Assembly: GCA_017645785.1 (NCBI GenBank)
Contig: JAGCNW010000030.1
Span: 27,045 to 91,044, forward strand
Direction: 5' to 3'
From: Treponema sp.
Lineage (GTDB): Bacteria; Spirochaetota; Spirochaetia; Treponematales; Treponemataceae
DNA length: 64,000 bases
Shown: piece by piece, positions 5,053 to 60,412 of the stretch
Layout of the letters: the number at the start of each line of letters is the position of its first letter
Position numbering within the stretch: position 1 is the first letter of the stretch
Notes under the pieces: generated by a model
What the model was told of the DNA's origin: nothing
Seen by the model: only the letters and a program-made list of their open reading frames with translations
Databases searched by the model: none
Position numbers and translations under genes: made by a program

Positions 5053-5958
5053 TTAATAATCGAGTTCGTCAAGGCGGAGTTTCCGCCCATTCTTGACGAA
5101 TTGGCTGAGCTTGATTTGCCCGCTCTTGTAAAGCCCGTATCTTGTCTTTCCGAGTATCTCCCTTTGCTCTTCGTCCGAAAGGCTGTCAACGAACTCTTGG
5201 TAGGTTGGCAACTCGACGTCAGGCTCTCCGTCCACTTCGGCTATCAAAACGCAGCGGCAGCGGTTATGGAGAGGGTAGTTGGGAGCCTTCGCCCTGTCGG
5301 AGAAGAACAAGCCGTGGTAGTCTCCGCAGACAACGCAAGTGTGCCCGTCAAGCGTGGCGCAACAGCGGTAGCCCCTTATTTGCTCGGAGTTCGCCTCGTA
5401 AGTCCGCAAGTCGGCGAACTTGGCGAAAGACGGTATCGAAGTCTCGAAGTCCGACATAACGGAGTTCTCGAAGGATTTCTTCTGCCTTCCGGCGGTCTCA
5501 ACGGCTCCCTCGCTTGAGCCGCCGAAAGCCCAAGCGGAGCGGACGGCGGAAGAGTAGGCCGTTCTCACGCTTCTAGCCAAGCGGTCGGAGGCCGACTGTA
5601 TGGTGTCCTTGCCGTTGTAAGGGGTGAACTTCACGAAAGAGCTGAAGTCGTCGGGAGTTTTGTCGAAGCCGTATAGTTTGGAAAGCCACTTCGCTTGCTT
5701 GGCCGCCACTCCGACGGCGGCTCCTATGGCCAAGGCGGAAAGGGCGGTCGAAAGGGCGGAAGTCCTTTTTTTAATCTCGGACTCCGCCTCGGAAACGGCG
5801 GCCTTCGTGTGGTAGTCAGGCACGGAAAGGATTATGTCGTCAAGGTCGCCCTCGCACTCCTCTAAGAGTTCAAGGGCTTTCTCCGCCTCTCCGTCCGCGT
5901 AAGCCTCAATGTCGATGTATCTTTTGAGAAAATCGTCGGCTTTCAAACTTCGCTCCAC
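5053..5958 (-). CDS. Minor head / head morphogenesis protein (Phage_Mu_F, SPP1 gp7 family)
   Basis: C-terminal CCATLDGHTCVVCGDYHG...NYPLHNRCRCVLI is the family signature. The track start (6141) would overlap the upstream gene by about 200 nt. In-frame GTG 5958 or TTG 5946 (GGAG upstream) are more plausible starts. Confidence 0.75.
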   Translation of the reverse strand: MERSLKADDFLKRYIDIEAYADGEAEKALELLEECEGDLDDIILSVPDYHTKAAVSEAESEIKKRTSALSTALSALAIGAAVGVAAKQAKWLSKLYGFDKTPDDFSSFVKFTPYNGKDTIQSASDRLARSVRTAYSSAVRSAWAFGGSSEGAVETAGRQKKSFENSVMSDFETSIPSFAKFADLRTYEANSEQIRGYRCCATLDGHTCVVCGDYHGLFFSDRAKAPNYPLHNRCRCVLIAEVDGEPDVELPTYQEFVDSLSDEEQREILGKTRYGLYKSGQIKLSQFVKNGRKLRLDELDY

Positions 5959-7283
5959 GGCCTCAAGTATCCGATTACGGTCTTGTAGTCCCACTTGGCT
6001 ATCTTCGCCCCGTCCTGCTTGAAGCCGTCCTGCTCGAAGACGACAAGGTATGTGGGAAAGGTCTCGATGACGATTGCCACGTGTCCGTATTTGTTCTTTT
6101 CGGTCGCTCCGAAAACAACGACGTCCTCCTGCTGTCCGCAAAAGCGGTCGGTGATGAGATTAAGGTATTTTTTTTCAATGGGAAACTCGTTGTATCGCAG
6201 AACCAAGTCCTTCGCCCCGCCGTCCGCTCCGAGAGACTCCGTGCGGGGAATGTTCCAGCCTTCGTCGCACCATTGGCGATACAAGTCCATACAATTATGG
6301 ACTTTGTAATTATTGCAAATGTAAGTGTGCGTTCCGTCTGTTTCAAGGTTGTAAACTTCTTGTTCAGATTCCTCCAAATATTCCAAATAGCGTTTATGAG
6401 TTTTGGTGTTGTTGAAACAAACTGTCAGCATATAAAGAGGTTTGATGGATTTCACCAATTTGCCTTTTATTCTGATATAATCAGAACTCCTTTTTGAAAG
6501 ACGAAGGCTCTTTGTTGCGCATCCTAATTTTATGCACATGGCTTGAAAAGCCATCAAAAGCGGCAAATTAGTGTTTGTTATTCTGTAAGAATTGTGATGG
6601 GGCGACCCATCCGCATTTATAAAACCTTCCAAAATCAAAGAGTATTCGCGGTTGGAGAATGTAAGGGGCAACTTCTTTTCCGCTCCGCATACATTCAGAA
6701 TGAAATCAGTGAGTTTTTTATGCTCCCTCTTCAACAAACCAGCCACATACGCATTTTCACTTTCTTGATGAACCCTCTCGTCTCCCGTCAAACCTAACGA
6801 ATGGACAAAGGCTCTTTTTTTAACGCCATAAGTAATTCTGATTTCGTCGGTGCGGTTGTCTTTGTGATAGCCGATATTGCCATCTCCAAGCCAAAATCCG
6901 AGAAACTTCAACTCGTTGTCAGTCAAACCGCTGGGCGCATAAATTTCTCTGTCAAAAAGAGCGGGAGTCTCTTTTTCAAGATGTTGGGCAGGCACAAACC
7001 TTCCGCTTTGGCAATAAAACGGGTGGTCGGGAGTTACATAGAAATCGCCAAGTTCCGTTCTGAGGTGAACAACCTTTCGCTTGGTGTTAAAAAGCTTGAC
7101 TACTGTGTTAACTTGGTTGTCATAGCCTATGACTTTATCGCCAACCTTAATGTCCTCAATCGGCTTATAAGTCCAATCCGACATCAAGACACAATGCCCT
7201 TTCGTGAAACATTGAGGCCCCGCGTATCCGTCGTAATCCACCTTTGTCTTGATGTGTTTCTGAATGAAATCCCAAATGTCCAC
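5943..7283 (-). CDS. CHAP-domain peptidoglycan hydrolase precursor interrupted by an intein
   Basis: Exteins MDIW...DYDGYAGPQ + CMDLYRQWCDEGW...KYGHVAIV...FEQDG reconstitute a LysK-like CHAP motif (compare DADGYYHAQCQDLITDY and GHIGIV in phage K LysK, from memory). See the intein feature. Confidence 0.8.
   Translation of the reverse strand: MDIWDFIQKHIKTKVDYDGYAGPQCFTKGHCVLMSDWTYKPIEDIKVGDKVIGYDNQVNTVVKLFNTKRKVVHLRTELGDFYVTPDHPFYCQSGRFVPAQHLEKETPALFDREIYAPSGLTDNELKFLGFWLGDGNIGYHKDNRTDEIRITYGVKKRAFVHSLGLTGDERVHQESENAYVAGLLKREHKKLTDFILNVCGAEKKLPLTFSNREYSLILEGFINADGSPHHNSYRITNTNLPLLMAFQAMCIKLGCATKSLRLSKRSSDYIRIKGKLVKSIKPLYMLTVCFNNTKTHKRYLEYLEESEQEVYNLETDGTHTYICNNYKVHNCMDLYRQWCDEGWNIPRTESLGADGGAKDLVLRYNEFPIEKKYLNLITDRFCGQQEDVVVFGATEKNKYGHVAIVIETFPTYLVVFEQDGFKQDGAKIAKWDYKTVIGYLRPWSEV
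6294..7211 (-). mobile_element. Intein (306 aa) with LAGLIDADG homing endonuclease domain
   Basis: Residues 25-330 of the 446-aa ORF. It starts CFTKGHCVLMSDW..VGDKV and ends THTYICNNYKVHN followed by +1 Cys. LAGLIDADG motifs are LKFLGFWLGDGNI and LILEGFINADGS. Confidence 0.8.
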
Positions 7284-10566: not shown

Positions 10567-10595
10567 TTGACTACAAAATGTAACTATGGTATAAT
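10567..10595 (+). promoter_or_regulatory. Near-consensus sigma70 promoter TTGACT-17-TATAAT (start of the plus-strand early region)
   Basis: Read directly. The spacer contains AAATGTAAC and GTAACAgtATGTATACA lies just upstream (recurring motif). Confidence 0.65.
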
Positions 10596-11120: not shown

Positions 11121-11224
11121 AAGACAGTTTGTTTGACTTTCCGCAGCCAAAGATTGACAAGAAAAGGTGGAACGAGATGACCGAGAAGGAAAGGGAGCCT
11201 TTATGGAACTTGAGGGGAAAATGA
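11117..11224 (+). CDS. Small hypothetical protein (35 aa)
   Basis: Own translation. ATGA-coupled on both sides in a chain of overlapping small ORFs. Confidence 0.3.
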   Translation: MKDSLFDFPQPKIDKKRWNEMTEKEREPLWNLRGK

Positions 11225-11400
11225 AAAGAAAGAGTGAACGCGAGAAAGAACGCATTGAGGCGTTGTATGAACTTGTGGAAAAAAAACCGGACGCATTTTT
11301 CTTTTTATTTCTGCTTCATTGCTTGCTTTTGCCGCAAGATAAATTCGAGCAACTTATAAAAAGTATGGAATCAGATTTGAAGGTAGGAGAGAATATATGA
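11221..11400 (+). CDS. Small hypothetical protein (59 aa)
   Basis: In the frame of track ORF 11167..11400. Start taken at the ATGA overlap. ATGA-coupled to the nadR-like gene. Confidence 0.4.
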   Translation: MKRKSEREKERIEALYELVEKKPDAFFFLFLLHCLLLPQDKFEQLIKSMESDLKVGENI

Positions 11401-12506
11401 ATATTGGAATTTGTTTCGGCGGGTATTCACCGATGCACCAAGGCCACTTAGACTTAATTATGAAAAGCAAAAAGTTGAATGACTTTACACATGTCATTGT
11501 GTGCGGTTATGGCGGAGACCCGAGAGGAGAACTTCTTCCATTGGAAAAGCGTTATAACATTATTCGCAACTTCTTGCAGGAAGAAACCGTCGCAGTTCAT
11601 ATGATAAATGACACTAAACTCGGCCTTGATGAGTCTATGAGCCAAAATAATTGGCGTGTTTGGCTTGGAGAAGTGGAAAAATTTGTTTGGCAGACACCTC
11701 TTTTGAAAAATGAAGATTCTTGGATTGATACAGTAAATTTTTACGTTGCGGAAGAAAGGTATGTTAGCGATATTAACAACGCCATAAAAAATTTTGGAGC
11801 GTTCCCTTCTTATCGAGTCCGTGTTAATTTTTCAGACCGTAATGAAAATCTGATTTCTGGAACTATGTGCCGCTCAAACCCTATTAAAAGCTGGTTTAAA
11901 ATCACGCAGCCATTCAGAGCTTACTATTCTCACAATATTCTCATCACAGGAACCGCTTCTGAAGGAAAGACAACTCTCACGCGCGATATTGGCAAATACT
12001 TCGGCATCCCATACTCATACGAAAAGGGCCGCGACATCTGCCACTTAAAGAAAGACACGGAATTTAATTTTAAAGATTTTTTGTATAACATCACGGAGCA
12101 GAATAGATATAACGAAGAGTTAATTTGTTCCCCGCAAAACCCTGGCGTGTTCATTTCCGACACAGACAATATGGTAACTCTGATGTATGCGGCGGCATAT
12201 AAAGAGCGCGAAGGCTTTTCTATTGGCAAAGAGGAATACAAAGTCCTTTATGAAGTTGCAGAGCAGTATGCAAAAACAATAAAATGGAACAAAATCTTTC
12301 TTATCAAGCCCCATAAAAAACCCATCGTTGATGACGGCGAAAGATACATGCCGGATTCTGCCTACAACATTCGGGTTAAATTCTACAACAACCTAAAAAA
12401 ACTTTACGAGGCGTTTGGGTATGAGTTTGAAGAACTTGATGGCAACTATTATGAAAATTTTTGCTCTGTAAGGGATTATATCCGCAGCATTGGTTTTCAG
12501 AATTAA
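11397..12506 (+). CDS. nadR: NadR-type bifunctional NMN adenylyltransferase / ribosylnicotinamide kinase (no HTH domain)
   Basis: GGYSPMHQGHLDLI matches the GxFxPxHxGH nucleotidyltransferase motif. The central P-loop ITGTASEGKTTL matches the RNK domain. The region looks AT-richer than its flanks. Confidence 0.8.
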   Translation: MNIGICFGGYSPMHQGHLDLIMKSKKLNDFTHVIVCGYGGDPRGELLPLEKRYNIIRNFLQEETVAVHMINDTKLGLDESMSQNNWRVWLGEVEKFVWQTPLLKNEDSWIDTVNFYVAEERYVSDINNAIKNFGAFPSYRVRVNFSDRNENLISGTMCRSNPIKSWFKITQPFRAYYSHNILITGTASEGKTTLTRDIGKYFGIPYSYEKGRDICHLKKDTEFNFKDFLYNITEQNRYNEELICSPQNPGVFISDTDNMVTLMYAAAYKEREGFSIGKEEYKVLYEVAEQYAKTIKWNKIFLIKPHKKPIVDDGERYMPDSAYNIRVKFYNNLKKLYEAFGYEFEELDGNYYENFCSVRDYIRSIGFQN

Positions 12507-12535
12507 AATAAAAATCCAAATACGCAGGAGGAATT

Positions 12536-13273
12536 ATGAAATTTGGAGAGTTTTTTAAAGAGGAATTTGTCAACGGCAAAAATGCCGTTGATTGGGCTAT
12601 GTTTGCGGTAGGCCTTGCGTTGCAGTCGCTCGCGATTATACTTGGCTTCGTTTCCGGGACGCCGGACAGCGCGGGACTGGTTGTCTCTGGCATCGCTGGC
12701 GTTATTTCCGTCGTGCTTTGCTCGCAGGGAAAGATTTCATTTTACATCTTCGGCTACATTCAATTATTTACTTATGTGTTTTGTTTCGCCTTGCCGCAAC
12801 GACTTTGGGGCGAATTCATTGAGAACATTATGTATGCGGTTACAATGGTTATAGGCTTGATTGTTTGGGCCAAGAATTACCGCAGGCGTGAAAACGCGAA
12901 AGCAATCGAAATTAAGGCGAAGAAACTTGGCTGGAAAGGAAATCTTGTCACCGCATTGATTTTTGTTGCGGGCACAATCGGTTACTGGATGTTCTTAAAA
13001 AACGTTCCAATGTTAGGCTCCCTTGACAGTCAGCCATTTGTGGACAGCGTAACTTCGGTTCCAGCTTATATCGCTCAGTTCTTTATGGTTTTCGGTTTTC
13101 GAGAACAATGGATTTATTGGCTTATTCTTGACATAGGTTCAGTGGTTCTCGCTTTCCGCGCGGGGTCTTGGGTTATGACGGCGCAATTTATGTTCTGGTG
13201 CGTCAATTGTATATACGGATTCATTCTTTGGCACAAATCAGCGGTTTACGACAATTACTCAAAAATATGTTGA
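12536..13273 (+). CDS. pnuC: PnuC-type nicotinamide riboside transporter
   Basis: 245 aa with multiple TM segments. Trp-rich C-terminal half (EQWIYWLILD, FMFWCVNCIYGFILW). Lies 30 nt downstream of the nadR-like gene. Confidence 0.75.
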   Translation: MKFGEFFKEEFVNGKNAVDWAMFAVGLALQSLAIILGFVSGTPDSAGLVVSGIAGVISVVLCSQGKISFYIFGYIQLFTYVFCFALPQRLWGEFIENIMYAVTMVIGLIVWAKNYRRRENAKAIEIKAKKLGWKGNLVTALIFVAGTIGYWMFLKNVPMLGSLDSQPFVDSVTSVPAYIAQFFMVFGFREQWIYWLILDIGSVVLAFRAGSWVMTAQFMFWCVNCIYGFILWHKSAVYDNYSKIC

Positions 13274-13798: not shown

Positions 13799-13875
13799 TG
13801 GACAAGACCTTGCTGAAAATTGCCTTGTCCACCCTCATAATCGGACTCATCCTTCTCTACGGCTACCACCCCTAG
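13798..13875 (+). CDS. Possible 25-aa membrane peptide
   Basis: MDKTLLKIALSTLIIGLILLYGYHP. Its start overlaps the previous stop by 1 nt. Confidence 0.25.
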   Translation: MDKTLLKIALSTLIIGLILLYGYHP

Positions 13876-14260
13876 AAAAATCCGCCTTTTCATCCCCCCC
13901 TTCGGAACCCTAAAACACTCCCAGAAACGCCCCTAGGAAGCCCCACAGCGCGTTCTTAGCCCCTTCTTGGATTTATAGCCAAAACCCCCTAAAATAGCCC
14001 TTTTCTATGCCCTTAACCCCCCCTTTCCGCATAAATATACGGCCTTTCCCGATACATCCCCGCCTTTTTCCCACACCTTTCGCATAAACTTGCGCAAAAA
14101 GCCCCTAAAAACCGCATATTCTTGCATAACCAGCCCCTTGCAATCCCCATTCGCCCCCTAAATGTATGAAAAAGTATACATCTCTTCAATTTATGCCCTA
14201 CATCCCCTTATATTATATGCACTTACATATCTCTTAATCCCCTTTTATCCCCAGCGATGG
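13869..14260. repeat. C-run-rich non-coding region with dispersed CCC(C)TAAAA repeats
   Basis: CCCTAAAA-type copies at 13908, 13985, 14101 and 14154, with CCCCTAG(A/G)AA variants at 13869 and 13930. Many C4-C7 runs and no credible ORF. Confidence 0.55.
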
Positions 14261-14394
14261 ATACTCCTTTGAAAAAACTTGGCTTGTTTCTGTGTGGGAT
14301 AAGTCTCTGAAAAATAAATTTCAACAACTCCCCTGGGGATATAGGGCTGTATAGGGCTTGTAATTCCTTATAATATAAAGAGTTAGAGAAAGGC

Positions 14395-14417
14395 GGGGCA
14401 AGGGGAAGGGTAAGGGG
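14395..14417 (+). other. Canonical G-quadruplex-forming motif
   Basis: GGGGcaaGGGGaaGGGtaaGGGG read directly. It mirrors the upstream C-run block. Confidence 0.5.
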
Positions 14418-14593
14418 AAAAAGAATAATTGCATGTCGATGGGCAAAGGGTGGCATAGTGATGCTATATTGCAATTGTTCGCGCATAAAGCGGACGAGGC
14501 AAACCAAAAAGCAAGGCAAAAAGACTTGTAAAGAGGCTTGAATAAAAACTAAAGACGCAAGCCGATAGCGTGAAAATGGCAAGGTAGGTAAGT

Positions 14594-15055
14594 ATGAAAA
14601 GCAATGTTTATGCGGTAATTGGTAAAAAGCAACTAGACGAAAAGACGAAAAGAGCGCAAGCGCTAATTGAGTTTATACGCTTAAATTTTAATGACAAGTC
14701 GAAGCGTTTAGGGTTCAAGTCTTTTGTAAAAGAGTTTGGCAAGTTCAACGAGGATAAAAAGACTTTGTTAGCGTCTAGCGTGGTATCTGTAAATGACATT
14801 CAAGCGGCTTGCCGATATATTGCGGATAAGGCAATAGAAAATAACGAGCCTTTAATTCCCGCTCTTGAATGTGAAAACAATTCTTTTACTATTGCGGTAA
14901 AGTCTAGCGCTGATTATGCGCAATACTACCAAACAATCAAACCGCAAGTCAAAAAAGAAACTGATTACACAAAGTTAATAATAGACATGATAAACAAACA
15001 TAGCGAGGCGATACAACTTGACGCTATACAAGTTGCTATTGACGCTCTTAAATAG
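14594..15055 (+). CDS. Hypothetical protein (153 aa) isolated between two large non-coding regions
   Basis: ORF track. AAGGTAGG lies upstream of the ATG. Confidence 0.55.
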   Translation: MKSNVYAVIGKKQLDEKTKRAQALIEFIRLNFNDKSKRLGFKSFVKEFGKFNEDKKTLLASSVVSVNDIQAACRYIADKAIENNEPLIPALECENNSFTIAVKSSADYAQYYQTIKPQVKKETDYTKLIIDMINKHSEAIQLDAIQVAIDALK

Positions 15056-18996: not shown

Positions 18997-19167
18997 ATGC
19001 TAGTCGAGTTTTGGCATAGGGCGGGCGAGTTCGAGGAGTTTCCCAACTCGTTCTGGCATCGGGTGGCTATGATTGCTGACAAAGATGTGAAGTCAATCAT
19101 TGACACGGGGGACGGAGTTTGGCTCAAGAAGGACGGAGTGGCAGTCCAAAACGGCTTAATGGTCTGA
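18997..19167 (+). CDS. Small hypothetical protein (56 aa)
   Basis: Own translation: MLVEFWHRAGEFEEFPNSFWHRVAMIADKDV... Confidence 0.3.
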   Translation: MLVEFWHRAGEFEEFPNSFWHRVAMIADKDVKSIIDTGDGVWLKKDGVAVQNGLMV

Positions 19168-19268
19168 AATTTTTTTGGCGGCTATGTAACGGAATGTATG
19201 CAAAACGCAAACAAACGGTTACAAGCCGAAAGCGAAACCGCCCTAGCAAGGGCAAGGAGAAACCGGTT

Positions 19269-20849
19269 ATGCGTATAACCACATCAGATTGGTCGGTGTT
19301 CATCGACCATACTTTCACAAGCAACATTGGAAACTCGTTCCGTTTGGTAGGAACGGCCTATGTGTCGCCCGACGGCGATGTCGACGCAAGCGAAGTCCAC
19401 GCCTTGAAGGTGTCGGACGAGTTGGTGCCCGACTATCCGTTGGACACTAAGTTCCGCCTGCCCCACGGCGACGGAGTTATGCTCCCGCTCAAGGACATAG
19501 CGGAGCGCGAGGCGATGTTTATGTCGGGCCGCTTCCCCGATATGCGCCGTTGCGAAGTCACGGGCATAGCCTGCGAGGAAGGCGACACGGTTGTTCTTGA
19601 CAACGGAGCCGAAGTAATCGACTTGATAGCCGTTGACGCCTACGACGAGGACTCAATAACTCGCACGGTTCTTAAGGACGAGGCTTACGAGTGCGAGAAC
19701 TGCGGAACCGTCTACCTTCGCGGCGTCCACTGCGACGACTGCGAGTGCGTGGACATTCACGGAGATTGGCAGATGGAGGACGACTGCGAATGGCACGAAG
19801 ACCTTCGTGGTTACGACGACGGCTATGTTCTCTGCCGCGAATTTGAGCGCGAATGGCATTGGTGCGACAGGTGCGATGAATATGTCCACAACGACGATTG
19901 GAACTTCGACCAACACTGTTGCTGCGATTGTAGTTGCGACGGAGTGATTTTGAACTACCACGCCCACCATAGAACAACTCCGCGTTTCTTCGGCAAAAAA
20001 GGCGCCAAAGACTACATAGGCATTGAGCTGGAAATATCGGGTAATCCTAGCAGCGATTATCCGACCTGCCGTTACAACCAAGAGTTCGCAGAGGGGCTTG
20101 CCTCCAAAGCGGGCCTTGATGAGGACGAGATTTGGTTCGAGGAAGATTGCTCGATAGGCGACGGCTTCGAGATTATCTCCGCTCCGCACACGGTGGAGGA
20201 CTTCTTCGCCAAGTCCGACAAATGGGCGGCTATGCTCAAGGCTTGCTCCGACGCGGGCTTCAAGAGCCACGACGTTGGTTGTTGCGGCCTCCACGTCCAC
20301 GTCAACAGATTGATGTTTGGCAAGGACAAGAAGGCGCAGGATTTGGCGATAGGCAAAATCGTCAAGTTCTTCGACTTGCGTTGGGGCGAACTCGTGAAGG
20401 CCTCAAGGCGCCGCAGTTTCGGCTTCTGCGACAAGCCTAGCCTTTACGGAAGAAAATCCAAGGAAGGAACCCCCGCCTACAGCCGCGAAGATAGGACGAA
20501 GTGCAAGGCTGGCGACCCGCTCCGCAAGTGGGTTGACGCCGCCAAGCACGTTAGCGGACACGACTACGCCCTCAACAACGGCAACAGCGCCACGTTTGAG
20601 TTCCGCCTAGGTCGCGGAACGCTCAATCCGCTCTCATTCTTCGCTTGGATTGACTTGGTGGTGAACATCGCCAAGAACGCCAAGAAGGGCGACAAGAAGT
20701 TGGACGACGCGAAGGAATGGCTCAAGGGCATTAAGTTGACGACCGCCATCTACCTGTGGAAGCGCGGCTCATTTAAGAACGAGGTCGAGGCTTTGTTCCC
20801 CGAAGCCTCTTGGGTGGAGGACGCGACCGACCAATCGGACGCCGCGTAA
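19269..20849 (+). CDS. Amidoligase_2-family (glutamine-synthetase-fold COOH-NH2 ligase) protein with Cys-rich N-terminal region, paralog 1
   Basis: IGIELEISG, WFEEDCSIGDGFEIISAPHT, CGLHVHVNR, RRRSFGFC and ATFEFRLGRGTLN. The N-terminal half carries CENCG..CDDCEC..CDRCDEY..CCCDCSCDG. Start at ATG 19269 (AAGGAGAAAC upstream). Confidence 0.7.
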   Translation: MRITTSDWSVFIDHTFTSNIGNSFRLVGTAYVSPDGDVDASEVHALKVSDELVPDYPLDTKFRLPHGDGVMLPLKDIAEREAMFMSGRFPDMRRCEVTGIACEEGDTVVLDNGAEVIDLIAVDAYDEDSITRTVLKDEAYECENCGTVYLRGVHCDDCECVDIHGDWQMEDDCEWHEDLRGYDDGYVLCREFEREWHWCDRCDEYVHNDDWNFDQHCCCDCSCDGVILNYHAHHRTTPRFFGKKGAKDYIGIELEISGNPSSDYPTCRYNQEFAEGLASKAGLDEDEIWFEEDCSIGDGFEIISAPHTVEDFFAKSDKWAAMLKACSDAGFKSHDVGCCGLHVHVNRLMFGKDKKAQDLAIGKIVKFFDLRWGELVKASRRRSFGFCDKPSLYGRKSKEGTPAYSREDRTKCKAGDPLRKWVDAAKHVSGHDYALNNGNSATFEFRLGRGTLNPLSFFAWIDLVVNIAKNAKKGDKKLDDAKEWLKGIKLTTAIYLWKRGSFKNEVEALFPEASWVEDATDQSDAA

Positions 20850-22433: not shown

Positions 22434-24071
22434 ATGCAAATAAGCATTAACTTCGCTGACAAGGACGGCAAGGATTGGAACATCGGCGGCGACGCCAAGG
22501 CGGAGCGCACCGACGGAGGCTATTGGGACATAGACCTTACGGGCGTGTCGATTAACGGCGAAAATTGGTCTGACGAGTTGGGCGAAACAATAGTTCCGCT
22601 CGGCAACAGTTCATTCCGCTTGGCTGACATAATTCTCTGCGAGGCAATCCACCTGTCCGAGCCAGACTTCGATATGACAGGCCGTTGCTCCTTGACGGGC
22701 TTATGCTTCCCCAAGAGCGACTTCGTTGAGTTGTTCAACGGCGCTAAGGCTTGGAGAGGCGCGGCGTTCCGCGACAGCGATGACGACCTTTACTACCCGT
22801 TGCCCGAGCGCGTGGAGTGCACCGACTACTCTGAGCACCACATCTCAAACGTCGAGAAGTGCGACGTGTGCGGCGGCTACTATCTCAAGGGCAGAAAATG
22901 CGAGAACTGCTACATCAAGATTTACGACGGGGAATGGATTAAGAAGTCCGAGGCTATCTCCGTGTCGATTGGCGCTATGAGAACCTACGACAAGGCGGAG
23001 AACAAGCCGAACTACCGCTACTGCGCATGTTGCGGACGCTTGGTTCCCGTGAGCGAGTGGCACGAGGACTTCCATACCTGCGACTACTGCGAAGGGGAGC
23101 AGATTTACCCCGAACACTCTGACGAAGACTACGACGACGAAGAAGGCGAGCGCGACGAGGACGCGGTTATTGCGGGCTACCACAACAATCCGTTGGGACG
23201 CAACCCCCACTTCTTCGGAACTTACGAGCGCGGCAAGTTCAAGGGAATCGGCGTTGAGTTGGAAGTCGGCGGAAATCCCCGCTCCCACGGAGAGCAGTGC
23301 CGCTACAACAACATTGTCGCCAAGAACATCTACAAGGAAAGCGGCTTGGTTTCCAACCAAGTTTGGTTCGAGCGCGACGGCTCGCTTGACGACGTTAACG
23401 GCTTTGAAATCATCACCGCTCCCCATACGGTCAAGGCCTTCTGGGACAACACTGAGAAGTGGGCGAGGATGTTGGATTGGCTCGCCAAGAACGGCTTCAA
23501 TAGCCACAACAACGGTCGTTGCGGATTGCACGTCCACGTCAGCCGCTTGATGTTCGGCGACAATGAAATCAAGCAGAACAACACGATTGCCAAACTGTTC
23601 GCCTTCTACGAGAAGAATTGGGAGGACTTGAAGTTGGCCTCGCGCCGCAAGAGCTTCAACTACTGCGAGTTGAACCGCAACAGGGGCGAGGGCTACGAAT
23701 ACAAGACTTCGCTCAAGGAATGGCGCGAACTCGCAAAGCGCAAGAGAAACGGCATAAGGGTGGACGGAAGTTCCTACACCCACGGCTTCGCCCTTAACAA
23801 CACGAACTACGCCACGGTCGAGTTCCGATTGGGACGAGGAACCTTGAACAAGGCTTCGTTCTTCGCTTGGATTGACCTTTGCGTAGTCCTTTCAAAGAAC
23901 GCCGTCCGCATAACCAACAAGGGCGCGGACGAGAACGATGTTTTGAACTGGCTCAAAGGTATTAAAAAAGAGTCCGCCAGATACTTGTATCGGCGCGGAG
24001 CGTTCAAGACTGCCTTGGAGTCTATGTTCCCCGACTTGTCGTGGGAGTATGACACACGCGACCAAGCGTAA
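22434..24071 (+). CDS. Amidoligase_2-family protein with Cys-rich N-terminal region, paralog 2
   Basis: IGVELEVGG, WFERDGSLDDVNGFEIITAPHT, CGLHVHVSR, RRKSFNYC and ATVEFRLGRGTLN. The N-terminal half carries CDVCGG..CENC..CACCG..CDYCEGE. Confidence 0.7.
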   Translation: MQISINFADKDGKDWNIGGDAKAERTDGGYWDIDLTGVSINGENWSDELGETIVPLGNSSFRLADIILCEAIHLSEPDFDMTGRCSLTGLCFPKSDFVELFNGAKAWRGAAFRDSDDDLYYPLPERVECTDYSEHHISNVEKCDVCGGYYLKGRKCENCYIKIYDGEWIKKSEAISVSIGAMRTYDKAENKPNYRYCACCGRLVPVSEWHEDFHTCDYCEGEQIYPEHSDEDYDDEEGERDEDAVIAGYHNNPLGRNPHFFGTYERGKFKGIGVELEVGGNPRSHGEQCRYNNIVAKNIYKESGLVSNQVWFERDGSLDDVNGFEIITAPHTVKAFWDNTEKWARMLDWLAKNGFNSHNNGRCGLHVHVSRLMFGDNEIKQNNTIAKLFAFYEKNWEDLKLASRRKSFNYCELNRNRGEGYEYKTSLKEWRELAKRKRNGIRVDGSSYTHGFALNNTNYATVEFRLGRGTLNKASFFAWIDLCVVLSKNAVRITNKGADENDVLNWLKGIKKESARYLYRRGAFKTALESMFPDLSWEYDTRDQA

Positions 24072-30562: not shown

Positions 30563-30913
30563 ATGATTAGAGAGTTCAAAAAAGGCGGCTTGGACGAGCC
30601 GAGAGACATCAATTCAGTTATTATCAGCGGAAGGGTTATGTATGAGCCGACTCCCGCCGACTATACGGTGACGGAGAAGAACGGAGCGCGCTTCAACCTG
30701 AAGATTAGGACTGACGGAGTTTCTAAGACCCCGCAGGTGTTCAGAATCGTGGTTTGGGGCAAGCGGGCGACCGAATACTATCCCGTTTGCAAGAAAGGCG
30801 ACTACATTCTAGTCCAAGGCAGCCTAAGAAAGAACAACTGGGTTGACGACAAAGACATCATTCACGACGAGGCGGAGATTGACGCCTCGAAGGTCTCTAT
30901 GCTGGGGGTGTGA
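30563..30913 (+). CDS. SSB-like OB-fold protein lacking the acidic C-terminal tip
   Basis: INSVIISGRV, FRIVVWGKRA and GDYILVQGSLRKNNW. Confidence 0.5.
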   Translation: MIREFKKGGLDEPRDINSVIISGRVMYEPTPADYTVTEKNGARFNLKIRTDGVSKTPQVFRIVVWGKRATEYYPVCKKGDYILVQGSLRKNNWVDDKDIIHDEAEIDASKVSMLGV

Positions 30914-30914
30914 T

Positions 30915-31742
30915 ATGAGCGAGAAAGAAAAAAGCGTTCCGTTTACGGACGCGCAGAAAATGCTTATGGAGGCTCCCGCTGACGATTGGTTCACTCGTTG
31001 CAAGAAAGATTTCTTTCTTAAAGTCGGGCGGGATATGGTTTGCTCGGAACATCAAGAGTTGCATAAAAGGTTGTTGTCGCTAGACCCGCAGGATTGGCAC
31101 GAGTTGAACGCGGTGAAAGCCATATTCAACAATGGTCAATGGCTGGACAAAGACGCTACAGAGGCGATGATTATGCTATTGACCACGATGTATAACAATC
31201 CAAACTCTATTTCAAAGAAAACAAGGGATGGTGTGCAAAGTGAAGCTCACGCAACACTTTTTTTCGTAGTGTTAGGAGTGTTCTTTTCTATTGTAGCTCT
31301 ATGTTGCTTAAATAGAGATATAAGGATTGTTTTTGGAGTGTGTTATCTCACTGCATTTCCTGTTATGTTAGCCGTCCACGGAGGAGTGTCTTTTTTTCTC
31401 GGTTTATTGATTTATAATGCGTTTTTTGACCAAGATATAGTAAAGGAGCGTGGTTTCAATGATAGCGCGTATAACGACAAAATATTGTTTGAGTATAAAC
31501 ACGGGTTTAAATTCAAAGAAAATGTCTGTAAAAACATTCTCTTCCCCTTTTTTGATATCGAAGATTATGTGTCAAAAAACAAGGAAAAATTCTTTAATAA
31601 AAAAGACTCTATAAAAAAACTAGAAGATAAAAGTTTTAGGAAAAAAACAGGAAAATACATAAAATGGGGCGTTATAAGTATTGTTATTGTCACCATCTTA
31701 TTACTTCTTGGGCTTATAAACGCAGAAAAACCTTTACTATAA
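30915..31742 (+). CDS. Membrane protein (275 aa)
   Basis: Track frame, start at ATG 30915. Several TM segments. The C-terminal half looks markedly AT-rich and Lys-rich. Confidence 0.55.
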   Translation: MSEKEKSVPFTDAQKMLMEAPADDWFTRCKKDFFLKVGRDMVCSEHQELHKRLLSLDPQDWHELNAVKAIFNNGQWLDKDATEAMIMLLTTMYNNPNSISKKTRDGVQSEAHATLFFVVLGVFFSIVALCCLNRDIRIVFGVCYLTAFPVMLAVHGGVSFFLGLLIYNAFFDQDIVKERGFNDSAYNDKILFEYKHGFKFKENVCKNILFPFFDIEDYVSKNKEKFFNKKDSIKKLEDKSFRKKTGKYIKWGVISIVIVTILLLLGLINAEKPLL

Positions 31743-36891: not shown

Positions 36892-37092
36892 ATGACAGAC
36901 AATGAAAAACTGCAAACAATCAAACAATGGATTGATGAAGCAATTAGTCAAGGAAATAAAACAATATTAGTTATGGCTATAAAATCAATCCTTCTTGAAA
37001 AAGGAGAAGATGAAATAGAAATCGGGTATGGTGCAAAATTAAAACTTACAGAAAAAAGCAAGAAAATATTAAAGGATAAGGAGTCAATATGA
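36892..37092 (+). CDS. Small hypothetical protein (66 aa)
   Basis: ORF track. Confidence 0.45.
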   Translation: MTDNEKLQTIKQWIDEAISQGNKTILVMAIKSILLEKGEDEIEIGYGAKLKLTEKSKKILKDKESI

Positions 37093-37394: not shown

Positions 37395-37751
37395 ATGTTT
37401 GAGACGGAAGCAGAAGAATATGCGTCTACAGGTAGATTATCTAAATCTACTCATTTTTTTGGTGTCAAGGCTATATCTTTCAAAGACGGCGCGGAGTTCG
37501 GCTACCAAGAAGGCTTGAAGGCCAAGATAAACGCTACGACCATATCCGACTGTCCGATTAAGGATGAGTGGCATAGGCTGGGTAAGAACCCAAACGACTT
37601 GCCCGATGAGGATGTTCCTGTTTTATGCGTGAGGGGCAGCAATATTTATGTCGCTTGGTATAGCAATAACGAATGGCGAGGGACAAGGTGGGAGCAAGTG
37701 AAGAAGCCTTACGCTTGGAAGGAAATTGAATTGCCAAAGGAGAAAGAATGA
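37395..37751 (+). CDS. DUF551-like protein
   Basis: MFETEAEEYA...DGAEFGYQEG, then EWHRLGKNPNDLPDEDVPVLC...YAWKEIELP. Confidence 0.5.
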   Translation: MFETEAEEYASTGRLSKSTHFFGVKAISFKDGAEFGYQEGLKAKINATTISDCPIKDEWHRLGKNPNDLPDEDVPVLCVRGSNIYVAWYSNNEWRGTRWEQVKKPYAWKEIELPKEKE

Positions 37752-37921
37752 ATACATCAAGTGCAATAGATTTTGACAAAATTCAAAAGCAGTATTTTCA
37801 ATTATGCGAAGCAAGAGAAATCATCGCTTTGATAATAGGCGAATACAGGGATAAAGGTAGGGTTGAGTGTTCAACAATAGAGCGTGGCGAATTGTTGTTA
37901 AAAAATGATGTCACTGTGTAA
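37748..37921 (+). CDS. Small hypothetical protein (57 aa)
   Basis: Own translation. ATGA-coupled. Confidence 0.3.
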   Translation: MNTSSAIDFDKIQKQYFQLCEAREIIALIIGEYRDKGRVECSTIERGELLLKNDVTV

Positions 37922-39056: not shown

Positions 39057-39308
39057 ATGACTTACGAAGAATTGTTAGAATTACACCCTTATTTAAAAGA
39101 AATGAGAATTGGGTTATCAGATGACGACGAAACGCTGGCAAGGTGTGTTTTTGAGAGTTGCAATAAGCAAGTTGAGTCGCAGAAAGCCGTAATCAATTTT
39201 CTCAAAAAGGAACTGCAAAAGAAAACTTACTGCCGCCAAGTTATGAAGCGACAGTATAGGGAATTGAAGCAGAAATACGAAGCGTTGAAAAACAAGGAGA
39301 AGGTATGA
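39057..39308 (+). CDS. Hypothetical protein (83 aa)
   Basis: ORF track. Confidence 0.5.
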   Translation: MTYEELLELHPYLKEMRIGLSDDDETLARCVFESCNKQVESQKAVINFLKKELQKKTYCRQVMKRQYRELKQKYEALKNKEKV

Positions 39309-39832
39309 GACATTTTATTATCGTCGATATGCAGAAGGATTTCGTGACAGGGCCGTTGGGAACGCCCGAAGCGAAAAAGATTGTTCCCAAAATCAAGAAG
39401 CGCTTGGAGAAAGCAAGGGAAGACGGCTCAAGGATTTACTTCACGCAAGACGCCCACACTTTAAACTACCTTAAAACGCTTGAAGGAAAGAAACTGCCTG
39501 TTCCGCACTGCGTCGTGGGAACGAAAGGCTTCGACATTGTGGACGAGCTTCCGCCGTTGAAACGAAAGGAAACTTTGATACTTAAGAACCAATTCGGCTA
39601 CGCTGATTGGTATAGAAAAATAAATCCGGGCGACACGGTTACAATATGCGGCGTGTGCACGGACATTTGCGTAGTGTCGAACGCCTTGCTCATCAAGGCT
39701 ATTGGCGAAGTGAACGTCAAGATTTTGGCTGACTGTTGCGCGGGAACTACGCCCGAAGCGCACGAAGCGGCTCTTACGGTAATGCAAAATTGCCAATGCG
39801 AGATAGTGGGGTGGAAAAAAGAGGGGAAATGA
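39305..39832 (+). CDS. pncA: Isochorismatase-fold nicotinamidase (PncA-like)
   Basis: VDMQKDF, TQDAHT...PVPHCVVGTKG and TICGVCTDICVVSNA match the nicotinamidase Asp, metal-site and Cys signatures (memory). Confidence 0.65.
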   Translation: MRHFIIVDMQKDFVTGPLGTPEAKKIVPKIKKRLEKAREDGSRIYFTQDAHTLNYLKTLEGKKLPVPHCVVGTKGFDIVDELPPLKRKETLILKNQFGYADWYRKINPGDTVTICGVCTDICVVSNALLIKAIGEVNVKILADCCAGTTPEAHEAALTVMQNCQCEIVGWKKEGK

Positions 39833-40035: not shown

Positions 40036-40280
40036 AAATACGGCAGGAAGATTCCACTCCGATTGGAGACTGGTTTCACAACAACGGAGTTCAAAGTGTG
40101 TTTGAAAGCGTCAAAAATCAAGTTGACGAGTTCGACGTGGACACGGAACGGCTCGCCAACGAGTGCGACATTCTCATAAACCTTTTGAAAGGTTTGAAAG
40201 GGCAGGTTAAGAAAGTTGAGGCGGCTTGGCAGAAAAGCCAAACGCAAAAAAAGATTATGGAGGCTTTTTGTGAGAGTTGA
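40032..40280 (+). CDS. Small hypothetical protein (82 aa)
   Basis: Track frame. ATGA-coupled. Confidence 0.45.
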   Translation: MKIRQEDSTPIGDWFHNNGVQSVFESVKNQVDEFDVDTERLANECDILINLLKGLKGQVKKVEAAWQKSQTQKKIMEAFCES

Positions 40281-40284
40281 GGTT

Positions 40285-40815
40285 ATGCATAGTCCAGAAG
40301 AAAGAGACTGGTTCGGAGTTCGTAGAAGAGCATTGGTTACTGTCGGAAAATTGCCAAATCCAGACAAAAAGACTGACTTTGAATGGCAGAAGAAAATGCT
40401 TAGGTGCAGACATTCGCCAATCCGTTACTTGAGGTTTTCATTTTTGTTGAAAGACATTCCGTATTGGGTGCACGCTGAATTATGTAGACATCATATAGGA
40501 ATTGAAAAATATGTGAAAAGTCAAAGGGACGACAGAAATAACAACGACATTCCGCGCTCTGAAAAACCGCAAGGTGCGTTGGTTGATATGATTGTCGATG
40601 TAAATGCGGAAGCTCTTATGACTTTAATGAATAAAAGGTTGTGCGGGTGCGCGACAAAAGAAATGCAGGAACTTATGTTGTTGATACGAAAAGAAGTAAT
40701 CTGGAAGAATCCAGAGTTTACGGATTTTCTCGTTCCTATGTGTGAATATCAACACGAATGTAAAGAGTGTTGTCCGTGCAATCATAAAGCATTGTATTTT
40801 TGTGAGGCTAAATGA
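40285..40815 (+). CDS. Divergent, short ThyX-like (flavin-dependent thymidylate synthase-like) protein
   Basis: HSPIRYLRFSFLLKDIPYWVHAELCRHHIGIEKYVKSQR resembles the ThyX core but has RHH instead of RHR. NKRLCGCATKEMQELM resembles the later R.C..AQ.EI segment. Confidence 0.5.
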   Translation: MHSPEERDWFGVRRRALVTVGKLPNPDKKTDFEWQKKMLRCRHSPIRYLRFSFLLKDIPYWVHAELCRHHIGIEKYVKSQRDDRNNNDIPRSEKPQGALVDMIVDVNAEALMTLMNKRLCGCATKEMQELMLLIRKEVIWKNPEFTDFLVPMCEYQHECKECCPCNHKALYFCEAK

Positions 40816-41624
40816 AAACTTATAAAATTTATATTCATATAAATAAAAAAAATGGCAAGGTTTACGTTGGACAAACAAATAGAAGTAATATAAACAATCG
40901 CTTTGGGAAAAATGGAACTCACTATTACGATTGTCCAAGGTTCGGTAATGCTATAAAAAAATATGGCTGGAATAATTTTTGTCATTTAATTCTTGAAGAC
41001 AACATTTCGGAATCAGAAGTTGATTATAAAGAGCGCTTTTATATAAAGCTATATCATTCAACTGACAAAAAATATGGATATAATATTTCTGATGGAGGTT
41101 GTTTCTTTAAGGTAATTCCGATTGAAACGAGACAAAAAATAAGCAAAACATTAAAGGGGAGGCCATCTAAAAATTTGGGAAGACATCACACCGAAGAAAC
41201 AAAAAGAAAAATATCTGAGAAGAAAAAAGGTGTTAGCGTTCCAAACAATATTGTGTGGACAAAAGAAATGAGAGAGAGACAAAGCAAAAAATTAAAAGGA
41301 CACAAAATGCCAATGTCTGCAATCGAAAAACTTAAAAAATATTCTGGAAAAAATGCGGTGTGGTATGGCAGGCATCATACGAAAGAAACAAAGGAAAAGT
41401 TACGTCAGTATTGCGGCGAAAAAAGTTCGTTTTATGGGAAAAAGCATACTCAAGAATACAAGGATTATATGAGTAAAAAGGTTTCCGGTGTGAACAACCA
41501 AGCCTACGGGAAACATTGGTATACAAACGGGGAAGTAAACGCATTTACTTATGTATGTCCTATGGGTTATTGGAAAGGAATAACAAAGAAAAATAGCGAA
41601 AAAAAGAAAATTTTTTCTAATTAA
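40812..41624 (+). mobile_element. Free-standing GIY-YIG homing endonuclease with NUMOD3-like repeats
   Basis: YKIYIHINKKNGKVYVGQT, plus repeated GRHHTEETKRKIS, GRHHTKETKEKL and GKKHTQEYKDYM. Looks AT-rich versus its flanks. ATGA-overlaps the thyX-like stop. Confidence 0.75.
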
Positions 41625-60132: not shown

Positions 60133-60412
60133 CGAACTTTATAAATCATTTGTTACTATGCTTTGGTATCAAAACTACGAAGAAGTAATACTGAATATGT
60201 TGTCTAAACAAGAAAAGGATGGGATAATTCCATACGATGATAAAAACGGATTCTCAGAAGAAGTATGGTCTGTATTAGTTTTAATGTTTGGAGAATATGG
60301 AGTTGCACCAAGATACGGTTGGATAGAAAAGGTGACAGAGTTTAAGACGTTCTTACAAAAAGTATACACAGATATGACAAAAGATGATTATTCAGGGGAG
60401 AAAGAAGAATGA
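60125..60412 (+). CDS. Hypothetical protein (95 aa)
   Basis: ORF track. Looks AT-rich. Confidence 0.45.
   Translation: MSDELYKSFVTMLWYQNYEEVILNMLSKQEKDGIIPYDDKNGFSEEVWSVLVLMFGEYGVAPRYGWIEKVTEFKTFLQKVYTDMTKDDYSGEKEE

Follow-up and report, generated by a model that had tools for sequence, protein, structure and literature searches.

The NadR-like enzyme and its PnuC-family partner

The window analyzed here, a stretch of DNA of 64 kb, carries phage genes coding for major head, scaffold, portal, TerL, ERF, exonuclease, SbcCD, and clamp proteins. [quoted passage not shown] Both are exactly the open reading frames described in an earlier sequence-only reading of this DNA. They are located on the same strand, separated by 29 nt, and preceded by the SD sequences AGGAGAG and AGGAGG, respectively.

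Table 1. Features of the NadR/PnuC locus and the unlinked nicotinamidase-like gene
Feature	Position	Strand	Remarks
Sigma-70-like promoter match	10567..10595	+	TTGACT, 17-nt spacer, TGgTATAAT; extended -10 TG
Two small genes, 87 aa and 78 aa	10620..11120	+	Between promoter and cassette; GC3 0.75 and 0.71, native high GC
orf65	11203..11400	+	Small AT-rich gene; member of the AT-rich island
NadR-like ORF	11397..12506	+	ATG start; 369 aa; HTH-less, predicted bifunctional
PnuC-family (Pnu/SWEET-like) membrane transporter ORF	12536..13273	+	ATG start; 245 aa; predicted nicotinamide riboside importer
Two small co-directional genes, 83 aa (hydrophobic) and 87 aa	13287..13798	+	Downstream of cassette, native high GC
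Isochorismatase-family protein, probable nicotinamidase (PncA-like)	39305..39832	+	175 aa; unlinked to cassette

The NadR-like protein comprises an NMN adenylyltransferase (NMNAT) domain at approximately residues 1-170 and a ribosylnicotinamide kinase (RNK) domain at approximately residues 178-369. Pfam places CTP_transf_like at residues 5-159 and AAA_28 at residues 181-351, both passing the domain cut-offs, and the protein also matches phrog_3462 (E 6e-47). The TIGR01526 model nadR_NMN_Atrans aligns over the full length (E 2e-44), its 152 bits being under the NCBIfam equivalog cut-off of 341. The NadR profile PRK08099 gives 76 bits, under the cut-off of 201, and aligns from profile position 65 on only. 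Hence, the HTH part is absent from this protein. Its N-terminus corresponds to the first beta-strand of the NMNAT domain, and domain searches for an HTH in the NadR-like protein and in the upstream orf65 found none. The NMNAT motif and the P-loop named in the sequence-only reading are both present, GGYSPMHQGHLDLI at residues 8-21 and GTASEGKTT at residues 185-193. The nucleotidyltransferase motifs H14QGH17 (H14-x-G-H17) and I153SGTMCR159 (S154-G-T156..R159), as well as the Walker A (G185TASEGKT192), Walker B (D255TD257), and lid (D312DGER316; D312-D-G-x-R316) motifs of the RNK domain, align with the NadR structures 6gye and 8x7f. Moreover, these catalytic motifs are invariant among 37 homologues, together with the retained nicotinamide-recognition residue W86.

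The closest solved relative is Lactococcus lactis NadR (6gye; E 5e-40, approximately 30% identity), which likewise lacks an HTH, consists of the two catalytic domains, and shares the Walker A, Walker B, and lid motifs with our protein. An AF2 model of the NadR-like protein (pLDDT 89.2, pTM 0.83) superposes on NR/NAD-bound NadR structures, with full-length Foldseek TM scores of 0.81 to 6gye, 0.75 to 8x7f (E. coli), and 0.73 to 1lw7 (H. influenzae). The last two represent the canonical trifunctional NadR of Enterobacteria and Haemophilus, which shares the NMNAT and RNK catalytic core but, unlike our protein, carries an N-terminal HTH/repressor domain. Altogether, the profiles, motifs, and modelled fold confirm the proposed NadR architecture lacking the regulatory HTH, with predicted NMNAT and RNK activities.

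The next gene was likewise correctly recognized as PnuC-like. Its product scores 115.8 bits against PF04973 (cut-off 27.3) and 104.3 bits against the PnuC equivalog model TIGR01528 (cut-off 42.45), with the profiles covering the 7-TM core, and it matches phrog_1880 and, near full length, PDB 4qtn (E 1e-20, residues 20-234). Profile searches therefore recovered all the families expected from the earlier reading, that is, both NadR domains and PnuC. The ligand-binding motif WxxW(x)3D/N of TM6 is present as the D variant (W192IYWLILD199), and D ends this motif in every NadR-linked relative of the same clade. N occupies this position in the NR-characterized N. mucosa PnuC and in the T5-like homologue Bas28_0091 (locus L007). 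In the literature, N is found in both NR-characterized PnuCs and D in the thiamine transporter PnuT, while the Pnu family motif by definition ends in D/N. In addition, N180, probably the counterpart of this position, has been named as an NR-binding residue of Bas30_87 (PMC13464706). The difference between D and N leaves the NR specificity of our transporter in some doubt. NR specificity is nevertheless predicted here, because of the equivalog score and the obligate linkage to an RNK-NMNAT enzyme.

It could be argued that a D-type PnuC and its NadR-like partner handle a related but different compound, for instance nicotinic acid riboside or some further nucleoside of the pyridine or thiazole type, in which case the product would not be directly NAD+. 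In line with this idea, D is shared by the cassette, its NadR-linked relatives, and PnuT, the NadR-like scores fall under the equivalog cut-offs, and the genome also codes for a probable nicotinamidase, an enzyme that would make nicotinic acid. However, TIGR01528 is passed by a wide interval, the family motif admits both residues, and the NadR-like protein keeps W86 and all its NMNAT and RNK motifs and fits the ligand-bound structures. Linkage to an RNK-NMNAT enzyme also makes thiamine implausible as a substrate. We therefore regard a different substrate as very improbable.

Genomic setting, mobility, and carrier phage

A sigma-70-like promoter match is located where the head/packaging module (minus strand) and the plus-strand genes diverge. 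It is a pattern match that agrees with the consensus at 11 of 12 positions and ranks first among the sigma-70-like matches of the window. The earlier claim that the strongest promoter is found upstream of the pair thus holds as a consensus match only. Since three small genes separate this promoter from the NadR-like ORF, it is not part of the cassette. The first two of these genes are also called in identical contigs, and their products had no match in Pfam or PHROG searches. The third, orf65, is called in contigs L001-L003, gave no match in a family search, and overlaps the NadR-like start with its stop codon (ATGA). On the plus strand, the only terminator-like site found between the promoter and position 13800 is a weak 5-bp stem inside pnuC. 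Taken together, the top-ranked promoter match, the SD sites, the ATGA overlap, and the lack of an intervening terminator are expression signals that support the proposed cassette, and the two small downstream genes are probably part of the same transcript. An Rfam search of the cassette surroundings and the whole window, covering all families including NAD+ riboswitches such as the pnuC motif, found nothing.

The composition of the cassette departs from that of its surroundings, as the sequence-only reading had noticed. GC and GC3 are 0.39 and 0.43 for the NadR-like gene, 0.44 and 0.50 for the PnuC-like gene, and 0.37 and 0.39 for orf65, whereas the flanking genes range from 0.52 to 0.57 and from 0.65 to 0.78, respectively. 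This island is not unique, because further AT-rich islands are present in the window. In AT-rich phages, unlike in the carrier phage, the GC content of the cassette matches that of the genome.

In all relatives that we inspected (the window, L004, L005/L006, L088, L089, L090, Lak-A1 [L093], and the T5-like L007), PnuC follows NadR. The adjacency of the two genes is kept in seven further genomic contexts, with different flanking genes in each. Two relatives from jumbo phages, L089 and L090, have further genes inserted between the pair; a domain search detected no recognizable domains in these. Regarding selection, dN is 0.11-0.15 with saturated synonymous sites, and dN/dS is 0.04 and 0.09 where computable. 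These data show that purifying selection on the pair is strong and that both genes move together among phages that are otherwise unrelated. All 80 TerL-related loci inspected, which are distant relatives, lack the cassette, and this absence argues against a place in the core genome of the TerL lineage. Neither orf65 nor the flanking small genes are travelling companions of the cassette, as they are not next to NadR in other phages. Its composition and its absence from the TerL-related loci mark the cassette as an accessory, acquired module that is compositionally foreign in its carrier. Foreign composition might also be expected of passenger genes that are decaying and serve no purpose in the phage. 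This possibility is negligible and effectively refuted by the invariant motifs of the 37 homologues and the dN/dS values far below 1; moreover, both ORFs are intact and the sequence is identical on 12 contigs.

The 12 contigs with an identical NadR-like protein come from several samples, and the identical contigs share the phage context. These contigs are 75-100 kb long, and the GC content of the phage is 47%. The carrier is an uncultivated tailed phage of approximately 100 kb or more, metagenomic and non-enterobacterial, and its lineage is probably gut-associated. A megablast search of the cassette region against 50,697 phage records returned no match, indicating that a close cultured relative is absent from them. 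The portal protein is at most 30% identical to those of isolated phages, with matches scattered over many Gram-negative hosts, and TerL relatives in IMG/VR reach at most 52% identity. A GTDB genome scan returned a single match, an 8.4-kb contig of a "Bacilli bacterium" MAG, and one 61%-identical homologue is located on a phage-like contig assigned to an "Oscillospiraceae" MAG. The strong SD sites and the extended -10 sigma-70 promoter argue weakly for a Bacillota-like, or at least non-Bacteroidota, host.

An insert of foreign composition close to a promoter of the sigma-70 consensus type, in a window that also codes for CI-type/HTH repressor-like proteins and an ERF recombinase, could also represent a lysogenic-conversion moron. 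The genes would then be expressed in the lysogen from the strong promoter and provide NR salvage to the bacterial host and not to lytic replication. We consider this very unlikely. A search for an integrase or other lysogeny module in the 64 kb found none, the promoter is not the cassette's own, and no terminator isolates the cassette. In addition, the sole match with a bacterial label in the genome scan is the short MAG contig mentioned above. Jumbo phages and megaphages are generally regarded as lytic, and close relatives of the cassette reside in their genomes.

Relationship to NARP3 and other NAD systems

The sequence-only reading named only NARP1 and NARP2 among the NAD reconstitution pathways described in phages. 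This is its sole outdated point, as the combination of NadR and PnuC has now been published as NARP3. A NadR plus PnuC operon had already been suggested as a probable third pathway in the study of NARP1 and NARP2 (Osterman et al., 2024). More recently, Bas30_86/87 was reported to import NR and make NAD+, to replenish the NAD+ that Sir2-HerA and DSR1 consume, and to restore phage growth in the face of these two defences (Yan et al., Sci Adv 2026, PMC13464706). This effect needs both genes, the pair otherwise has little effect on host fitness, and the tests relied on plasmid expression with T7 and lambda instead of the native phage (PMC13464706). As the mechanism had been put forward in 2024 and was shown experimentally in 2026, our cassette adds a distant member to a system that was already known. 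With both mechanism and anti-defence effect already published, it opens no new question.

The cassette and the NARP3 pair of T5-like Escherichia/Salmonella phages (PDB 9x6f/9x6h) are alike in being phage-encoded, in the gene order nadR then pnuC, and in combining an HTH-less NMNAT+RNK NadR with a PnuC-family partner for a predicted conversion of NR to NMN and NAD+. In contrast, identity is approximately 24% for the enzymes and 29-32% for the transporters, 9x6f matches the NadR-like protein at residues 137-298 only (E 2e-10), the PnuC motif ends in N in the T5-like homologue and in D in the cassette, and the non-enterobacterial carrier is unrelated to the T5-like phages. The residues of the NARP3 enzyme identified by docking and mutagenesis (K10, S37, E80, E230, and D275) are not conserved in the NadR-like protein, in an alignment that is uncertain. 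L. lactis NadR likewise differs at position K10 of Bas30_86. Because the canonical family motifs are intact, we judge this residue mapping to be uninformative at 24% identity. The low identity to Bas30_86/87 and the closeness to L. lactis NadR therefore suggest that the cassette is a functional analogue and distant homologue of Bas30_86/87, not the same orthologous cassette, and that it was probably captured independently of the T5-like pair.

The closest deposited phage homologues are the pairs of Prevotella Lak megaphages (MK250015-29), with 41-43% identity for NadR and 38-40% for PnuC. These pairs are adjacent, in the same order, and have the D-type PnuC motif. Relatives with 60-82% identity occur on viral contigs of 214-258 kb. 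However, Lak and jumbo genomes range from above 200 to 540 kb and have a very low GC content, whereas the carrier phage, at its higher GC, has a different head and packaging module. Jumbo-phage NAD clusters often include extra nadM, NAMPT, or Preiss-Handler genes (PMC11662467). Bacterial nadR-pnuC clusters exist as well, for instance in Clostridium thermocellum (PMC7221760). Unlike the L. lactis genes, which are cellular, chromosomal, and devoted to housekeeping vitamin salvage, our cassette is phage-borne, mobile, and compositionally foreign.

NARP1 (Adps and Namat) and NARP2 (Nampt and NMNAT/Nudix) lead to a similar outcome, that is, phage-driven NAD+ reconstitution (Osterman et al., 2024). 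Both differ from the cassette in their enzymes and also in their substrates, which are ADPR and nicotinamide for NARP1 and nicotinamide and PRPP for NARP2. Among the approximately 70 largest ORFs of the window, there was no match to the Pribosyl_synth, NAPRTase, Nampt, or NUDIX families, and tblastn searches of the window with the Prs-like and NAPRTase-like proteins of Phass-1 returned nothing. Within the 64 kb of the window, these searches thus turned up none of the Prs/Adps-like, NAPRTase/Nampt-family, or Nudix proteins, and on this basis the locus was not assigned to NARP1 or NARP2.

Proposed NAD-salvage pathway of the carrier phage

With intact genes, the domain architecture, catalytic motifs, and fold of NadR, a conserved adjacency, mobility as a unit, and purifying selection, the locus is probably a NARP3-type NR salvage cassette in an uncultivated tailed phage. 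We infer its substrates, activities, co-transcription, timing, and counter-defence role from its homologues. After infection, the genes would be transcribed polycistronically from the strong promoter. The PnuC-like protein would enter the host cytoplasmic membrane and let external NR diffuse into the cell, where the kinase domain of the NadR-like enzyme would convert it to NMN and thereby trap it. The adenylyltransferase domain would then join NMN and ATP to form NAD+. Such a route has a precedent in L. lactis, where an HTH-less NadR converts NR to NMN and NAD and PnuC transport relies on NadR for metabolic trapping (PMC7221760). Since the phage enzyme lacks an HTH repressor domain, the infected cell could maintain or rebuild its NAD+ pool with no dependence on host regulation. 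The pathway put forward in the sequence-only reading, from NR import to NAD+, is therefore well supported as a prediction by profile, motif, structure, and context. The likeliest benefit would be replication despite NAD+-depleting host defences, such as Sir2-, TIR-, or DSR-type NADases.

The same biochemistry could be maintained for another selective reason. As an auxiliary metabolic gene set, possibly acting with the PncA-like gene, the cassette would raise the NAD+ supply for phage replication if the host is NAD-limited or a pyridine-precursor auxotroph, irrespective of any defence system. We see this metabolic role as possible, although we lean against it. Deposited phage records include 387 NadR-like and 103 PnuC-like entries from phages of very different hosts, and both PHROGs families are categorized as "moron, auxiliary metabolic gene and host takeover". 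Moreover, whole NAD-synthesis clusters in gut jumbo phages have been interpreted as an independent NAD supply (PMC11662467). The probable nicotinamidase of the carrier fits general NAD provisioning as well as counter-defence. On the other hand, the homologous NARP3 pair has a demonstrated effect against Sir2-HerA/DSR1 and otherwise little influence on host fitness. Both roles are compatible with each other, and the sequence does not tell them apart.

A two-gene unit that is mobile among unrelated phages and under strong purifying selection supports NAD+ replenishment as a general phage need. Metagenomic homologues number 2,370 at E<=1e-10, and many lie on contigs of phages or jumbo phages. With the cassette, predicted NARP3-type NR salvage extends well past Enterobacteriaceae phages, to an uncultivated lineage and a large metagenomic clade. 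The cassette is also a source of divergent enzyme and transporter sequences for the determinants of NR specificity, for example D versus N in the PnuC motif.

Outside the cassette, the PncA-like gene may provide the carrier phage with a second NAD-salvage function. Its product matches PF00857 (E 6e-30), and P. horikoshii PncA (1ILW) ranks first among its PDB matches (E 9e-18). D8, K88, and C122 align with D10, K94, and C133 of that enzyme, which we take to be its catalytic triad, and D49, H51, and H68 align with D52, H54, and H71, presumably its metal ligands. The assignment as a nicotinamidase is probable and not certain, given the 28.8 bits obtained with the NCBIfam PncA model against a cut-off of 174. 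A speculative and rather unlikely reading is that the phage runs a two-pronged NAD strategy, in which a stand-alone nicotinamidase complements an NR-salvage cassette that is divergent, was captured independently, and includes a D-type PnuC, or else that the D-type PnuC/NadR clade, found commonly in gut phages (Lak megaphages among them), handles a pyridine nucleoside other than NR, for example nicotinic acid riboside. In the former case, nicotinamide freed by NADase defences would be converted to nicotinic acid for the Preiss-Handler route of the host, a strategy not described for NARP3 phages. Either case would represent a distinct gut-phage variant of NAD reconstitution beyond a simple NARP3 copy.

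PncA-like homologues in the gut phages Phass-1 and MT835544 adjoin Prs-like, NAPRTase-family, and NAD-synthase genes. Since an NAD synthase is among the neighbours in Phass-1, these genes, annotated as Prs and NAMPT, are at least as likely to form a Preiss-Handler-type cluster as a NARP1 operon.

A predicted nicotinamide riboside salvage pair

[quoted passage not shown] This protein had been described as joining an NMN adenylyltransferase (NMNAT) to a ribosylnicotinamide kinase (RNK) without the regulatory helix-turn-helix (HTH), an architecture borne out by profile matches. Pfam places CTP_transf_like at residues 5-159 and AAA_28 at residues 181-351, TIGR01526 (nadR_NMN_Atrans) spans the whole protein (E 2e-44), and PHROG 3462 ('nicotinamide-nucleotide adenylyltransferase') matches with E 6e-47. 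The enterobacterial NadR model PRK08099 could be aligned only from profile position 65 onward, and hence the HTH part is missing. Since the protein scores below the NCBIfam equivalog cut-offs (152 vs 341 bits), it is a divergent member of the NadR family.

Features of the window
Feature	Position	Strand	Details
Head/packaging module (major head protein, scaffold, head morphogenesis, portal, TerL)	up to ~10.56 kb	-	
Hint/intein-like ORF	5943-7283	-	446 aa
Sigma-70-like promoter candidate	10567-10595	divergent region	TTGACT-17 nt-TGgTATAAT; consensus match 11/12, extended -10
Genes including ERF, exonuclease, AAA+ protein, two amidoligase-like proteins	from ~10.6 kb	+	
orf65	11203-11400	+	
NadR-like enzyme	11397-12506	+	369 aa
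PnuC-like transporter	12536-13273	+	245 aa
phrog_16683 paralogue	19119-20849	+	576 aa
phrog_16683 paralogue	22434-24071	+	545 aa
Isochorismatase-family protein, PncA-like	39305-39832	+	175 aa; family match E 6e-30
ThyX-like locus	40216-41624	+	199-aa ORF
Fused SbcCD	41621-44875, farther along the window	-	1084 aa
Sliding clamp	farther along the window		

Among solved structures, the HTH-less NadR of Lactococcus lactis (6gye, E 5e-40) is nearest to the window enzyme. Weaker matches were obtained with 8x7f (E. coli NadR), 1lw7 (H. influenzae NadR) and 9x6f; the latter is labelled only 'Nicotinamide-nucleotide adenylyltransferase', and we take it to be Bas30_86, the enzyme of the phage pathway NARP3. 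The AlphaFold model, built on an input alignment of 37 homologues, is confident (pLDDT 89, pTM 0.83). Along its entire length it can be superposed on all the NadR structures, with TM values of 0.81 (L. lactis), 0.75 (E. coli) and 0.73 (H. influenzae). Moreover, the adenylyltransferase residues H14-x-G-H17 and S154-G-T156..R159, the nicotinamide-recognition residue W86, and the kinase Walker A (G185TASEGK191), Walker B (D255-T-D257) and lid (D312-D-G-x-R316) all align with the solved enzymes and are invariant in 37 of 37 homologues.

The adjacent gene was likewise recognized as PnuC: the 245-aa product scores 116 bits with Pfam NMN_transporter and 104 bits with TIGR01528, the curated equivalog model for PnuC, which is above the cut-off of 42, and aligns over residues 20-234 with the crystal structure of Neisseria mucosa PnuC (4qtn, E 1e-20). 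The Pnu-family ligand-binding motif WxxW(x)3D/N reads W192IYWLILD199. Its last residue is D in the window protein and in all NadR-linked relatives of its clade, including those of Lak megaphages; N occupies this position in N. mucosa PnuC, characterized with nicotinamide riboside (NR), and in the T5-like homologue, and D is found in the thiamine transporter PnuT. Because either residue fits the motif and the transporter is paired with an RNK-NMNAT, the most likely predicted substrate is NR. The substrate assignment of this D-type PnuC is the weakest link of the functional inference.

[quoted passage not shown] The proposal that the phage pair follows the same route to NAD+ is supported by profiles, motifs, structure and context, from which we infer the activity here. 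We consider it quite likely that the two proteins import NR and turn it into NAD+.

Relationship to NARP3

Systems of this kind are not new and have been established by experiment. PHROGs annotates phage NadR-like and PnuC-like families as auxiliary metabolic genes, and a tblastn search of deposited phage records gave 387 with NadR-like and 103 with PnuC-like genes. That NadR genes of phages are usually in the same operon as PnuC was pointed out by Osterman et al. (2024), who suggested one more pathway of NAD+ reconstitution, and gut jumbo phages with pnuC and nadR were also reported in 2024 in Microbiome (PMC11662467). Yan et al. (Sci Adv, August 2026; PMC13464706), who named the pathway NARP3 and solved the Bas30_86 structure, showed that the PnuC-like Bas30_87 imports NR and the NadR-like Bas30_86 turns it into NAD+. 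Co-expression of both, and neither alone, restored NAD+ and phage plating against Sir2-HerA and DSR1, results that the authors place outside the native phage context. As the selective value of the window cassette, we give defence evasion and a general supply of NAD roughly equal weight.

The cassette shares architecture, gene order and predicted chemistry with NARP3. However, its enzyme and transporter are only ~24% and ~30% identical to the T5-like pair, and the residues highlighted by docking and mutagenesis in the NARP3 paper mostly differ in the window enzyme. L. lactis NadR is nearer to it than the T5-like enzyme is, as are the Lak megaphage pairs (41-43% identical for the enzyme, 38-40% for the transporter). 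We regard the cassette as one that would work like NARP3 and as a new, distant representative of this type rather than an orthologue of Bas30_86/Bas30_87. Since pnuC and nadR are already clustered in some bacteria (PMC7221760), the most economical reading is that a nadR-pnuC operon of bacterial, probably Bacillota-type, origin was captured independently and now circulates among gut phages. What is new is a divergent member in a new phage lineage; the NARP3 paper makes no mention of gut, metagenomic or jumbo phages (PMC13464706).

Mobility and predicted expression of the cassette

The cassette is a mobile unit, probably acquired, and is under selection. As had been noticed from the sequence, it is AT-richer than its surroundings: GC3 is 0.39-0.50 in the small upstream gene orf65, NadR and PnuC vs 0.65-0.78 in the neighbours, with sharp edges at ~11.2 kb and 13.28 kb. 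It forms a compositional island only in the window, whereas in other phages with related cassettes its GC equals that of the genome (0.27-0.37). The NadR and PnuC genes are all that the window shares with the related loci L004, L005/L006, L088, L089 and L090 (NadR 59-82% identical), and PnuC lies downstream of NadR in each of these and in Lak-A1. Both genes are absent from all 80 IMG/VR loci that were chosen by their related TerL genes (<=52% identity). The 369-aa protein is found unchanged on 12 contigs, which come from several samples and share its gene neighbourhood. Against relatives 78-82% identical, dN is 0.11-0.15 with synonymous sites saturated; where computable, dN/dS is 0.04 for NadR and 0.09 for PnuC.

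In L088 (4051-5853; Bacilli MAG contig JAZNJG010000088.1), NadR is 59% identical to that of the window and the adjacent PnuC just 29%, which suggests that the transporter partner was replaced or exchanged between cassettes. The pair is not always strictly contiguous: in two jumbo-phage viral contigs, one 213-aa gene (L089, 258 kb; 5125-5766) or four small ORFs (L090, 214 kb; 5094-6416) are inserted between NadR and PnuC. Within the window, further AT-rich islands (GC3 0.21-0.42) lie at 14594-15055, 30843-31742, 36892-37092, 37748-37921 and 60125-60876, and core genes have GC3 of 0.6-0.78. The phage genome is a compositional mosaic, in which the NadR-PnuC island is one among several probable acquisitions.

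The window is a tailed-phage genome. The promoter regarded as its strongest is indeed the top sigma-70-like match in the 64 kb, as judged by consensus match only, and the single one combining 11/12 with an extended -10. Three small genes, orf65 last, separate it from NadR; orf65 and NadR overlap in ATGA, and strong Shine-Dalgarno sites precede both NadR and PnuC. Between the promoter and 13.8 kb, the only + strand terminator-like structure is a weak 5-bp stem within pnuC. These signals make co-transcription of the cassette from this promoter likely. No riboswitch or other Rfam family was found around the cassette or in the whole window. The stretch of ~0.8 kb that follows the operon (13800-14590) has no convincing + strand ORF and no Rfam match; all it contains is an ORF of low GC3 (14223-14582) and a terminator-like hairpin (13939-13918), both on the - strand. 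Shine-Dalgarno strength, promoter type and the labels of the MAGs to which two related contigs belong (Bacilli, Oscillospiraceae) weakly hint at a Bacillota-like host.

A nicotinamidase-like gene and other loci

The best solved match of the 175-aa isochorismatase-family protein is the nicotinamidase PncA of Pyrococcus horikoshii (E 9e-18). Taking the roles of the PncA residues as our reference, the catalytic D8/K88/C122 and the metal site D49/H51/H68 are conserved; the protein, whose family PHROGs labels 'unknown function', is probably a nicotinamidase. Homologues are confined to eight deposited phage records, all uncultured (seven human faecal; Phass-1, human gut), which suggests a human-gut origin of the phage. 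In two of the eight, Phass-1 (OQ749652.1; L094 8001-12439) and MT835544.1 (L096 3293-8531), the homologue adjoins genes for Prs-like (annotated 'ribose-phosphate pyrophosphokinase'), NAPRTase-family (annotated 'NAMPT') and NAD-synthase proteins. This cluster might represent a Preiss-Handler-type pathway or else an operon like NARP1 (Adps/Namat) to which deamidation and amidation steps have been added. Finding a phage nicotinamidase as well as a cassette for NR salvage is a hint of wider NAD provisioning, in which the part of the predicted enzyme is less certain because it would remove nicotinamide.

Several other loci are unusual. Flanked by the genes for portal and head morphogenesis, the 446-aa ORF matches Hint/intein-like (Hom_end_hint, Vint), LAGLIDADG and C-terminal CHAP/amidase-like domains, an uncommon combination for a head module, and has a GC of 0.45 vs 0.53-0.56 in its neighbours. 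The ThyX similarity of the 199-aa ORF is confined to the C-terminal part of that enzyme (positions 142-186 of the Thy1 profile), and the ORF is directly followed by a 270-aa homing-endonuclease-like gene (PHROG 'homing endonuclease' families; GC3 0.29); thyX may have been disrupted or remodelled by a mobile endonuclease. GIY-YIG and NUMOD3 Pfam matches also occur in the window, without a link to one specific ORF. Of the two phrog_16683 paralogues, the second carries an Amidoligase_2 domain. Finally, the 1084-aa ORF joins an N-terminal SbcD-like and a C-terminal SbcC-like part in a single fused nuclease.
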